Below are positions 58,319 through 64,000 of a stretch of DNA of 64,000 bases, in pieces (within the stretch, counting starts at the first letter, position 1; every line of letters starts with the position of its first letter). The stretch lies in the NCBI RefSeq assembly GCF_044324785.1, contig NZ_CP172127.1. One strand, 5' to 3'. A program made the translations under genes and the position numbers. The DNA is from Escherichia coli. Its GTDB lineage: Bacteria; Pseudomonadota; Gammaproteobacteria; Enterobacterales; Enterobacteriaceae. The notes under the pieces were generated by a model that made no database searches, was not told the DNA's origin, and worked only from the letters and a program-made list of their open reading frames with translations.

Positions 58319-58768
58319 TTAAAGCCCACCTATTTCTTGCGACAGAAAAGGGATTTCTTTTTTAATCCAATCTACCATTTCATTTTTTTCAAAACATACG
58401 TTAATGCCATTCACACTTCCACATTCACCAAAACCATCAAAATAAATTTCACATTTATTATTTTTATTCGAAACAATGTCAATCCCCCATCTTATATCGT
58501 TATTCTCCTCCTTCCTGAAATACTTCATTTGCAATAAATCAATTATCTCACCAGCATAAAAATCGCTAACCCCATTCACCACCACTTTATGTTTGTATAT
58601 TCTCTTGAGACCTTCCTTGCTAAGCGGGGTTAAGGTGGTAACATATGCTGGAAGATTAATTATTTCTATCGTTTTCACACTATCTATTCCACACAATTCA
58701 TTCACTCGCCCCATCCCCAATACCGAAGCAGAAAATAGAGACAATAAAACCATCAAATATTTCATCAT
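58319..58768 (-). CDS. Candidate immunity protein for the intact Rhs HExxH toxin; has an N-terminal signal peptide, 149 aa
   Basis: Directly downstream of the rhs stop; low GC; N-terminus MMKYLMVLLSLFSASVLG is a typical Sec signal. Confidence 0.6.
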   Translation of the reverse strand: MMKYLMVLLSLFSASVLGMGRVNELCGIDSVKTIEIINLPAYVTTLTPLSKEGLKRIYKHKVVVNGVSDFYAGEIIDLLQMKYFRKEENNDIRWGIDIVSNKNNKCEIYFDGFGECGSVNGINVCFEKNEMVDWIKKEIPFLSQEIGGL

Positions 58769-58780
58769 AAAAAAATCTCA

Positions 58781-61700
58781 CTATTCTGGCGTGCCATTTA
58801 TTGTTGCCGTCTGTGTTGGTGTATTCACACGATAATACACTCCATTATATGCTGTTCTGGTACACTCACCTAAAGTTTTCGCCGCATGCTGTTCAATTAA
58901 AGTGATAACTCTCGCCTCTTCTTTATTTTTATATTGTTCATCCGCACGTCTCACAAGCCCCATATAGCCATCCTTATCAATAAGATATAAGTGCGCATGA
59001 GCAAACTCATGCCCCAAACCTAATGCAGGTGATTGTGATTTCGATTTTAAATCAGTTGAACAAAATAAAGCCGCCTTACCATTCCAATATATAGTCATTT
59101 TATCCGGGTCAAATCTAACGTCGGTTTCATCAATATACTCTATCTTTATGGTTTCTTCAGAGCTTGATAAAAAATCTATAGCTTCTTTCATTCGTGAATC
59201 TTGTTTTAAATACTCAACAGCCTGATTAAAATCACTTGGATCATCGTTAACATGGAATTTTAAACCCAAAGAATCTATAAACCGAACAGGGTTTAATGGA
59301 TATTTATACAGATTCCATTCACCTCTTAGCCCGATTGGATCCTGGGTGATATACCTCCCCTGTAGCGGGTCATAGTACCGGTTCCGGTTATAGTACAGTC
59401 CTGATTCCTCATCATGCTGCTGCCCCGGCAGACGGTATGGCTGGTGCAGGTGATGCGGGTTCTCCTCATTCAGCAGGTTGCCCCATTCATCATATTCCCC
59501 ACGCCATTCCGTTGCTCCTTCGGTACTGATGAGCGCCAGCGGCAGCCCCCGGTGGTCACAGTGATAAAGATGAATTTTTCGCTCAGGTAAATAAACCGGC
59601 TCTATCTGTGCCGCCAGCCGCTCCACCGTCAGCCCGCACTGTGCCAGCCACGCCCGGCTTTCACTGCTCACGCGGTCTGCCCGGATTTCCCCCTCCAGCC
59701 TGTCCAGCATCCTCACAAGTTCTGCCGGGAACACCACACCGTAGCCGTCCTCGCTTCCTTCCTGCTGCAACTTCTCCGCCAGGCTCCGCCGCTGCGTTTT
59801 CTCCCGCTCGCCGTTGTCTGTTTCGATGCGGATGAGTGGTGTGAAGCTTCCCGGCTCGTATACCGTCTGGATACGTGTGCTGTCGGTCTGCACCGTCGTC
59901 AGGTGGTCGCCGTCCCAGCCGTACCACGTCACCTCCGGTTTACGCGACAGCGACATCCACCCCGTCAGGTCACGTACCCGCCGCCACACCCGTTTACCCG
60001 TCCGGCGGCCCAGCGGGTCGTAGAGGTAGCGGCTCTCCACCTGCGGCTCGCCATGCTGTATCCGCGTGTAGAACACCAGGCGGTGCTGGCTGTCGTAGTG
60101 GTAGTGGTGGGTCCGCTCGTCGTCCGTCCGTATCACACCCGCCGGGATGCGGTCCGTCTTCTCCGTCAGCCTGCCGTATTCATCGTGGCGGTAGACATAG
60201 TGCGCATCCTCCGCGATGCGGTTATCCGGCCACACTGTGAGTGTACTGTCCGGGTGCAGCTCCGGGTCCGGCAGCCGGTTGCCCGCCGGGTCCGTGGCAT
60301 ACGGGATGCGGATGTCCAGGTCCGGTGCGAGGGTGCGCACACTCTCCAGCCTGCCCGTGGCGCTGTAGCCGTATTCCCGCGTCTGTCGCGGGCCGCTGAT
60401 GCGCACCAGGTCGCCGTTGTCATTCCACCCGTAGTCACGGTCATACACCAGGCTGTTCAGGTGCTGGCTCTGTAACTGGCCTGCGGGGGTGTATGTGCTG
60501 GTCAGTTCGTATGCGGCATTACTGCCTGCCATGCTGCCGAAGCTGCGCACCGTCTCCCGGTGCAGCCTGTCCCGCGTATACTCGACCCGCGGCGTCCCGC
60601 CCAGCTTCATGCCCGCCAGGTAACCGCTGCCATACGTCAGCCACTCCACCGGCGGCAGGCTGTCCGGCGTGACGCGGTTTGCCAGCCCCTGCTCGTTGTA
60701 TGCGTGTTTCGTCTCATGCTGCCACAGCAGTTCCCCCGTCTCCGGGTTCTCCACCGTCTGGCGTTCGCCGGTCAGGCGGCCTTTATCGTCATAGCCGTAG
60801 TGGACCGCCACACGGTGGCCTTCACTGATATGGCTGAGGGTGGTTAACCACCCGTGCTCATCATACTGCCACTGCTCTGCCGGGTCGCCGTTCACCGTCC
60901 GGTGCGTGATGCGGTCTGCTTCATCGTAGTACCAGAGGATGACAAGCCCCTCATCTTCACTCTGCGTGAGTTTTCCGGTCAGGTCATAATGATAACGTTG
61001 CGTCCGCCCGTCAAAGCCGCGCTGCTGTACCAGGCGGTCCAGCGCATCGTAGCTGAAGTCGCTGTGACTGCCGTTCTCGTTGGTCAGGCTGATGACACGT
61101 CCGGCAGCATCGTACTCCATACTGCGCGTCAGCCCGCCCTGCGTGGTGCTGACCGCCTTTCCCCACGCATCGTACTGTGTCTCGCTCCGGTTGCCGTCCG
61201 GGGTGATAACGGCAGTCAGGTCGCCTGCGGCGTTGTACTCATACTGCGTTTCACGGCCCTGTGCGTCTTTCACCGAGGTTAACCGGCCACGGTTGTCATA
61301 GCGGCGGTAACGGCTGATACCTTCCTCACGGTGGACCGCCGTCATCTGACCAAAGCGGTCGTATTCATAACGGGTCTGGTAGCCCGAGCAGTCGGTGAAC
61401 GCCAGCAACTGCCCGTAGCGGCTCCAGGTCATCTGCCGGGTGCTGCCCGTCGCATCCGTTGTCGTCGCCGGTAATTCACTGTGCGGATTATCATAAGCAT
61501 ACCGGATGACGTCCCCACTGCGCGATGTCTCCGTTACCAGCCTGCCCGGTTCATCATATGCCCGGCGGCTCTCCAGCCCGTCCGGGGACACCACTGCCGT
61601 CACCTGGTTCCCGTCGTTATAGTAAAATTTCGTCTCCCGCCCGTCCGGTGTGGTGATGTCCGTGATATCGCCTGACACCACATTCAGACCGTACTCTGTC

Positions 61701-63043: not shown

Positions 63044-63109
63044 GATTCAATTCCTTCTTCTGTTTATTTTTAATGCTTGTTTGTTACTGAATACCGAACA
63101 GGTACGGGA

Positions 63110-64000
63110 TCAGTACTCTCTCATATCCGGCGTATCCTGCTTTTCATCAGGGGTCTTCGGTGGGGATTTCGAGGCTGCACAGTTCCAGTTAATCAACAGT
63201 GAGTCACCATTAACCTGCTCCTTACCCTGCAAATGAATTTTTGTGCCGTTGAGAAAAATTTGTCCGTCCTTAGTCAGCACCAGCCTTGCCTTACCACAGC
63301 AGAGTTCCAGATGCTCACCGGCGGAGTAAATCGCGGTCTGCCCGGTATCATCCTTTTTCGTTTTACCAACGGTGAAGGTAACGTTATTTCCGACTTTGAC
63401 GTCATAACCCAGCCCGACCCTCAACGATTTATGCAAACCGATCTGCGAGGACTGCATCAGGGCCACCGAGGTGTTCATAATGCCACCTACCGTCGTCTGA
63501 TACGCCACGCCCACAGTCAGCGCACGCACAAGTCCAATCGTTTCCACCTGAACAGAGCCCACTTTAATGATCTGGTTACTGCCCACCGTCTCTATCTGGT
63601 TAACACCCACCGTCTGTATCTGATTGTTGGTAACCGCAATCATCTGATTGTTGCCAATGGTCTCAGCATGGTTGTTTATCACATCCGTGGTGCGGTTATT
63701 CAGCACCTCGGTGTTCATATTCTTCTGCGCGTGGATGTAGACCTGTTCTTTCCCTGTCGCATCGTCAAACTTCAGTTCATTAAACCCGCTGCCCTTATAG
63801 GTTTTCGAACGAATGGTCATCTGCGTCTTTGTTCCCGGCAGGCTGCCGGGGGTGCGGTTTTCCTGGTGGTAGGTACGCCCCATAATAATCGGCTGGTCCG
63901 GATCGCCGTTGAGGAAGTCCACAATGACTTCCTGACCCACACGCGGTATCGCCAGGTTGCCAAAGCTGGTGCCTGCCCACGCCTGTGCCACACGGATCCA
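63110..64000 (-). CDS. vgrG: T6SS spike protein VgrG, C-terminal part; gene continues beyond the window end
   Basis: Translation (...QAWAGTSFGNLAIPRVGQEVIVDFLNGDPDQPIIMGRTYHQENRTPG...KSKTYKGSGFNELKFDDATGKEQVYIHAQKNMN...) matches the VgrG gp5-like region; frame is open to the window edge. Confidence 0.85.
   Translation of the reverse strand, partial: WIRVAQAWAGTSFGNLAIPRVGQEVIVDFLNGDPDQPIIMGRTYHQENRTPGSLPGTKTQMTIRSKTYKGSGFNELKFDDATGKEQVYIHAQKNMNTEVLNNRTTDVINNHAETIGNNQMIAVTNNQIQTVGVNQIETVGSNQIIKVGSVQVETIGLVRALTVGVAYQTTVGGIMNTSVALMQSSQIGLHKSLRVGLGYDVKVGNNVTFTVGKTKKDDTGQTAIYSAGEHLELCCGKARLVLTKDGQIFLNGTKIHLQGKEQVNGDSLLINWNCAASKSPPKTPDEKQDTPDMREY

Follow-up and report, generated by a model that had tools for sequence, protein, structure and literature searches.

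A vgrG-linked Rhs protein with a predicted M91 zinc-protease tip and an exported candidate immunity protein in Escherichia coli

The subject of this report is a candidate type VI secretion system (T6SS) effector/immunity module in Escherichia coli, located at the end of a 64,000-nucleotide (nt) stretch of contig NZ_CP172127.1 (RefSeq assembly GCF_044324785.1) that we refer to as the window. Three genes follow one another on the minus strand: vgrG, which encodes the T6SS spike protein; an Rhs gene; and, after a gap of 12 nt, an open reading frame (ORF) of 149 amino acids (aa) that we regard as a candidate immunity gene (Table 1). The visible VgrG fragment of 293 aa matches TIGR03361 (TssI/VgrG, VI_Rhs_Vgr; E 1e-50) and TIGR01646 (E 7e-33), and the annotation of its ortholog in E. 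coli N3 (702 aa) reads "type VI secretion system tip protein VgrG." The vgrG stop codon lies 66 nt upstream of the Rhs gene on the same strand, and the intervening gap holds a Shine-Dalgarno sequence, AAGGA, 9 nt ahead of the Rhs ATG. The vgrG linkage and the Rhs architecture of the locus are matters of direct observation, and the elements from which a preliminary description of this DNA had started (vgrG, the 66-bp gap, an intact 1420-aa Rhs protein, and the motifs DPIGL and GHEFAHAH) are all present. The G+C content is 62-68% in the Rhs core and 34-38% in the tip and the 149-aa ORF, a drop of the kind commonly seen in Rhs core extensions. The arrangement is not a product of chance; the module made up of tip and ORF turned up again in about 20% of complete E. 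coli genomes (1082 of 5426).

Table 1. Features of the vgrG-Rhs-immunity locus in window coordinates
Feature	Position	Strand	Remarks
vgrG 3' part, T6SS spike protein	63110..>64000	minus	truncated by window end; stop codon 63110-63112
Rhs ORF	58781..63043	minus	1420 aa, uninterrupted
Rhs N-terminal region and YD-repeat core, aa 1-1261	59261..63043	minus	KPAAR N-terminus, DUF6531, YD repeats, Rhs-associated core DPIGL...IDSLGL
C-terminal toxin domain, Rhs aa 1262-1420 and stop	58781..59260	minus	predicted Peptidase_M91 / Tox-HopH1 zincin
Candidate immunity gene, 149 aa, "RHS element protein dsORF-h1"	58319..58768	minus	predicted signal peptide ~aa 1-18/20 and mature domain

The Rhs core is matched from end to end by the NCBIfam RHS_core equivalog NF041261 (2753.6 bits against a cut-off of 2000 bits, covering model positions 1-1261 of 1261), by TIGR03696 at aa 1184-1261 (E 1.9e-23), and by YD-repeat models (E 4.5e-49); Pfam recognizes DUF6531 (E 1.5e-18) and RHS_repeat. 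DPIGL occupies aa 1235-1239. Since the conserved core extends to IDSLGL at aa 1256-1261, the toxin domain comprises the 159 residues that follow it. The preliminary description had correctly placed an HExxH-bearing tip after DPIGL, but its length of ~180 aa was too great. For the PAAR label that it gave to the N-terminus there are a literal P-A-A-R peptide at aa 5-8 and a weak Pfam match to PAAR_motif (E 0.095 over aa 3-20); this E. coli Rhs N-terminus is regarded as PAAR in the literature (PMC6730261). The Kyte-Doolittle scale reveals no transmembrane (TM) segment in the Rhs protein (maximum over 19 residues, 0.87), and there is no Eag chaperone gene between vgrG and rhs, where the gap leaves no room for one. 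The closest solved relatives in sequence are Tse5 (8cp6) and RhsA (7q97). By analogy with such proteins the core would hold an autoproteolysis site, of which the core end, DPIGL...IDSLGL, is what can be seen here.

HEFAH, within GHEFAHAH, falls at Rhs aa 1345-1349. Searches begun from the single tip sequence stayed close to home: the NCBIfam scan matched the Rhs core end alone, the sole match among PDB sequences was another Rhs core end, and a word-indexed protein search, in which full-length Rhs proteins group by their cores, returned toxin matches in E. coli and Shigella alone, the best at 75% identity. When 1.84 billion cluster representatives were searched exhaustively by HMMER with a profile built from two alleles, a family emerged that numbers 796 of them at E<=1e-3 and 120 at the stricter E<=1e-10, with E values down to 1e-26. 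The domain is the extreme C-terminus of 97 of the 107 full-length matches. Of the top 150 representatives, 137 come from outside E. coli, and 46 of these carry a DPxG[LF] motif; this combination of position and motif is the signature of a polymorphic-toxin tip. We aligned 59 members, which are 29-43% identical to the window toxin except for a second E. coli allele at 72%. Residues H84, E85, H88, and E123 of the domain (Rhs H1345, E1346, H1349, and E1384) are invariant in this alignment, while E115, E132, R135, and position 138 are conserved in at least 90% of it. Taken individually, 40 of the 59 members match PF14891 (Peptidase_M91) at E<=1e-3 (best 3.3e-10), and 56 do so at E<=0.1. Membership of the window toxin in PF14891 appears to be transitive, by way of these homologues (E 0.055-0.11 for the window sequence alone), and the toxin is, as judged from its sequence, a divergent member of that family.

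The key residues of the toxin would be H1345, E1346, H1349, E1384, E1393, and R1396-x-x-Y1399. The family profile aligns a 13-residue segment onto DPALTLMHELIH in the botulinum neurotoxin E light chain (BoNT/E) active site. The second histidine, H1349, precedes E1384 by 35 residues, the same spacing that separates H227 from E262 in BoNT/A. M91 proteins are the nearest relatives of the botulinum light chains and share with them HExxH, a glutamate zinc ligand, a second glutamate, and RxxY (PMC6367388), a set that the window toxin carries whole. An AlphaFold2 (AF2) model of the domain is confident (pLDDT 95.6, pTM 0.91). Family and predicted fold place the tip among the M91 / Tox-HopH1 zinc endopeptidases as a compact member, with catalysis predicted from its conserved residues: H1345 and H1349 would bind zinc, E1346 would be the catalytic base, E1384 or possibly E1376 would supply the third zinc ligand, and E1393 together with R1396-x-x-Y1399 would shape the active site. 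A metallopeptidase had been proposed earlier from the single HExxH motif, and that proposal now has behind it a large family, its invariant H/E/H/E, and its PF14891 matches. Identity with Tox-MPTase4 (Rhs-CT1) was considered and rejected, PF15640 being unmatched by the window toxin and by all 59 family members.

The same protease domain is also found on other carriers, namely a ToxA_N protein (L002 768-2702), a DUF6443 protein (L007 2501-5710), and a 2426-aa Rhs protein that resembles SpvB/TcdB Tc toxins (L006 2501-9781). No gene of the kind that follows the window toxin lies downstream of the domain at any of these three loci.

The common allele of that downstream gene bears the NCBI product name "RHS element protein dsORF-h1," a name that presumably ties it to an element "RhsH." The preliminary description could match the pair to no Rhs toxin and immunity protein that it could name; both now have names, dsORF-h1 for the ORF and the catalogued Tox-HopH1/M91 type for the toxin. 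No Pfam or NCBIfam family accounts for the 149-aa protein, the best Pfam match, DUF7584 (E 0.017), being below significance. It begins with MMK and a 17-residue uncharged stretch (Kyte-Doolittle value over 15 residues, 2.2), and the hydrophobic portion of 15-17 residues is followed by small residues (SAS|V, VLG|M), from which we predict a Sec-type signal peptide. The same organization, with one or two basic residues, a hydrophobic stretch of 10-17 residues, and a small-residue cleavage region, is kept in 19 of 20 homologues that are 20-83% identical. The sequence of this segment is itself unconserved among them, and one member may have a lipobox; retention of a signal-like property without conservation of sequence is the behavior expected of a genuine signal peptide, and the earlier assignment of one to this ORF thereby gains support. 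A lipoprotein reading of the window protein was rejected, N-E-L ahead of Cys26 forming no lipobox. The ORF product is modeled by AF2 (pLDDT 86.8), and its mature alpha/beta domain has four cysteines, which are conserved in the enterobacterial mature proteins.

Homologues of the ORF adjoin homologous toxins, on the downstream side, in E. coli (L001 and L013), in Salmonella (L005 and L011/L012), and on one metagenomic contig (L004), where the gene that follows a 41%-identical toxin is homologous to the window ORF at E 3e-13. More distant homologues were retrieved by profile search. Because the signal peptide is kept in 19 of 20 homologues and the gene stays next to the toxin, it is reasonable to regard the product as a periplasmic immunity protein, which is what the preliminary description had suggested when it proposed that the toxin acts in the periplasm; co-occurrence of the two genes in several lineages favors the suggestion, which is still an inference. 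Orphan copies, with no M91 toxin on the contig, occur at L008 2663-3151, L009 5001-5483, and L010 2425-2907; copies of this sort are typical of immunity genes. The orphan of L008 has TPR/Sel1 genes and a Tlde1-domain gene for neighbors, and the surroundings have the look of an effector/immunity island.

The Rhs island is flanked by narZYWV-yddE-nhoA-yddH-ISAs1(ydcC) on one side and yncH-yncG-ansP on the other, which identifies the location as the rhsE site. Over 1.2 kb the region is 100% identical to that of strain N3 (L001). In N3 a 4-nt insertion frameshifts the same Rhs gene (window ~61500-62500 versus L001 15302-16306), and the window copy is intact; the gene is undergoing loss in close relatives. 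Of the module copies in complete genomes, 38 reach at least 99% identity to the window and 985 represent an allele with a DNA identity of about 86.6%, so that the window allele is the rarer one. That common allele, as it occurs at the same chromosomal site in strain AMSHJX01 (L013 7462-11724), also goes with an intact 1420-aa Rhs protein. Between the two, the toxins are 72% and the immunity proteins 84% identical in amino acid sequence, with ratios of nonsynonymous to synonymous substitution rates (dN/dS) of 0.44 for toxin, 0.44 for immunity, and 0.25 for core, and no catalytic residue is lost. Their Rhs cores, at 77% aa identity, fall into separate subfamilies, and the 22 codons joining the DPIGL core end to the tip are 100% identical in DNA. 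An identical junction between different cores looks like the product of recombination, that is, of classic tip swapping.

A second Rhs gene in the array (window 54068-58242, minus strand) begins 78 nt past the 149-aa ORF. In the window it is split into three ORFs of 110, 607, and 673 aa, and in strain N3 it is annotated as a pseudogene, frameshifted and with an internal stop. Its tip is a different toxin, Tox-WTIP (PF15654, E 2.5e-13), whose C-terminus is hydrophobic, and the 114/135-aa ORF that follows (window 53697-54104, minus strand), which belongs to no family, presumably encodes the matching immunity protein. The array is bordered at ~52058-53350 (placed from L001 5859-7151) by a transposase pseudogene of the ISAs1 family (H-repeat, ydcC) and a fragment of a helix-turn-helix gene, as E. 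coli Rhs elements usually end. Farther out, at ~47500-51500, the window has ~1.4 kb more than N3 between its narI/yddE flank and its yddH flank (offset 44754 -> 46199); either an insertion or the replacement of a segment could account for it.

We propose that these genes constitute a T6SS Rhs effector/immunity module, in which an M91 zinc-protease tip acts in the periplasm or envelope and is blocked by the exported 149-aa protein, and we assign this proposal a probability of about 0.7. The Rhs protein would mount on the upstream VgrG spike via its PAAR-like N-terminus, its YD-repeat shell would enclose the toxin as in solved Rhs proteins, and the toxin would be freed by autoproteolysis after the DPxGL...GL core end. 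Effectors of the prePAAR type have N-terminal TM helices and an Eag chaperone, and these go with crossing of the inner membrane. The window protein has no TM segment and its locus no Eag gene, and the presumed immunity protein is exported; we therefore infer that, in the Gram-negative cell under attack, the toxin would work in the periplasm or envelope. In sister cells, the 149-aa protein would meet the toxin in the periplasm, bind it, and block it. What the toxin cuts is the weakest step of the proposal. Its nearest enzymes (NleD, GtgA/NleC, and the botulinum light chains) are sequence-specific protein endopeptidases, and for this reason cleavage of a specific envelope protein seems likelier than cleavage of peptidoglycan.

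Several observations weigh against this proposal. In a direct Pfam scan of the tip alone Peptidase_M91 stayed below significance, next to NolX at E 0.057. Rhs aa 1399 (window ~58844-58846) is tyrosine, the residue that botulinum light chains have at the R-x-x-[H/Y] position, whereas 54 of the 59 relatives, the common E. coli allele included, have histidine. The signal peptide was called by a heuristic and by conservation across homologues rather than by SignalP. The neighborhood of the Rhs island contains no T6SS core genes. The experimental precedent for such a pair, in Salmonella Dublin, is a small effect, 2.4-fold in competition (PMC8867033), and the published primers find no match within 4 mismatches in the Salmonella loci that encode homologues of both our toxin and our immunity protein (L005 and L011), so that orthology with the window pair is unsupported. 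Two of the alternative carriers described above, the ToxA_N protein and the Tc-toxin-like SpvB/TcdB protein, are eukaryote-directed and lack a dsORF-h1-type gene, and a 2026 survey of Salmonella lists Tox-HopH1 as anti-eukaryotic (PMC12994826).

The last two points would be expected if the M91 protease were an anti-eukaryotic effector that cuts a host signaling protein after T6SS delivery, with the ORF either unrelated to immunity or a mere safeguard. The characterized M91 enzymes are type III secretion system effectors that cut host mitogen-activated protein kinases (PMC9846239; PMC3482391), and part of the family may indeed target eukaryotes. As an account of the window genes we nevertheless think this unlikely: the ORF stays beside the toxin in separate lineages where the toxins have diverged to 36-43% identity and the ORFs to 25-38%, and orphan copies of the ORF exist, that of L008 beside a gene from the Tlde1 T6SS effector family. 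Adjacency and orphan copies are each typical of antibacterial immunity genes, and a Salmonella Dublin effector/immunity deletion was outcompeted by the wild type (PMC8867033). The toxin may also act on both bacteria and host cells.

The protease could instead be antibacterial and act in the cytoplasm, the N-terminus of the ORF serving as a membrane anchor or the immunity protein meeting the toxin before export. Most characterized Rhs toxins, nucleases and ADP-ribosyltransferases, are known to act in the cytoplasm. The partner in Salmonella Dublin was described with "1 TM" instead of a signal peptide (PMC8867033). We find this quite improbable for the window pair, since a basic N-terminus followed by one hydrophobic stretch of ~15 residues puts the main part of the protein on the periplasmic side whether it is cleaved or anchored. 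In almost every homologue the hydrophobic stretch gives way to small residues, the four conserved cysteines of the enterobacterial mature domain suit an oxidizing compartment, and the Rhs protein lacks the N-terminal TM helices and Eag chaperone that are linked to inner-membrane crossing. A third account would make the locus a silent relic, an Rhs cassette that is unexpressed, or undeliverable in a strain without a matching T6SS, and that is kept by hitch-hiking. The want of T6SS core genes nearby, the pseudogene next in the array, and the 4-nt frameshift in nearly identical N3 all point in this direction, and the Rhs elements of laboratory E. coli are known to be poorly expressed. We regard this account as very improbable all the same: the 1420-codon frame is open, the core scores above its equivalog cut-off, the catalytic residues are kept between alleles, dN/dS is 0.44 in toxin and immunity and 0.25 in core, and about one complete genome in five carries the module.

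The type of toxin and its architecture were already known; what is added here is a conserved family of exported partners, the first candidate immunity family for Tox-HopH1 toxins, along with an argument for a periplasmic antibacterial role. The locus is, in short, a real, intact, and well-supported effector/immunity module of a kind noticed before. Should the toxin prove to be periplasmic in action, the molecule it cleaves would be a new target for T6SS effectors in the Gram-negative envelope, and the domain itself, at 159 residues, would offer a small and tractable relative of the botulinum/NleD protease lineage. Work on it would help to resolve a dispute in the literature, where Tox-HopH1 Rhs effectors are antibacterial on the evidence from Salmonella Dublin and anti-eukaryotic according to the 2026 survey. 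The module is frequent in E. coli, Shigella, and Salmonella and for that reason may influence how gut enterobacteria compete. More speculatively, and with rather more doubt than conviction, we can imagine that the M91/BoNT-light-chain fold is commonest as a periplasmic weapon between bacteria; that the tip cuts one essential envelope protein (for example a lipoprotein or a cell-division or outer-membrane biogenesis factor) and not peptidoglycan; that dsORF-h1 represents a new periplasmic protease-inhibitor fold; and that NleD/HopH1, and perhaps the clostridial light chains, are offshoots of toxins of bacterial warfare.

In 2012 Zhang et al. (PMC3482391) catalogued, under the name Tox-HopH1, the HopH1-like metallopeptidase domains that form the tips of RHS toxins, and the PF14891 toxins of that description likewise have a C-terminal HExxH zincin after RHS repeats and an association with T6SS. 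No immunity family was listed for them in that catalogue, whereas the window toxin has a conserved partner family with a predicted signal peptide. In the 2026 survey (PMC12994826), which recognizes eight core families of T6SS effectors in Salmonella, Tox-HopH1 ranks fourth by frequency. The closest experimental case is the SPI-19 pair SED_RS06335/SED_RS06340 of Salmonella Dublin, a PAAR-RHS-Peptidase_M91 protein and the product of its downstream gene, which showed effector/immunity behavior in competition (PMC8867033). Like the window Rhs protein, that effector has ~1400 aa, a similar N-terminus, and an M91 tip and is followed by a small gene whose product has a hydrophobic N-terminal segment; unlike the window pair, it lies inside a T6SS cluster, and its immunity protein was reported as 110 aa with 1 TM. 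Its authors predicted peptidoglycan hydrolysis (PMC8867033), which the predicted fold of the window toxin does not suggest. Island PI2 of the Shiga toxin-producing E. coli O22:H8 strain 154 is also a vgrG island without EagR, with two Rhs genes, one of which has an M91 HExxH tip and, downstream, an unassigned ORF (bioRxiv 10.1101/2024.03.05.583533); there the M91 gene comes second among the Rhs genes and is interrupted by a premature stop, whereas in the window it comes first and is intact. That study of "Rhs-Peptidase M91" was carried out in silico and proposed a cytoplasmic target. Another predicted M91 effector, Tpe2 of Pseudomonas aeruginosa, has no immunity gene.

The botulinum and tetanus light chains (MEROPS M27) have ~420 residues against the 159 of the window domain, which is without their SNARE-gripping insertions (PMC6367388); NleD belongs to M91 itself. 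These enzymes work in neurons or the host cytosol, whereas the window toxin would be delivered into bacteria by a T6SS. E. coli Rhs-CT1 (Ma et al. 2017; Tox-MPTase4, PF15640) is likewise a PAAR-Rhs protein with a metallopeptidase tip and serves as an antibacterial T6SS effector (PMC6730261), but its tip belongs to another zincin family, and it is delivered with vgrGO1 and EagR, both absent from the window locus. The best functional analogue is the C-terminal gluzincin of Pseudomonas aeruginosa VgrG2b, which is delivered by a T6SS, is toxic in the periplasm, is neutralized by the immunity protein PA0261, and reportedly displayed no peptidoglycan hydrolase activity (PMC6899460).

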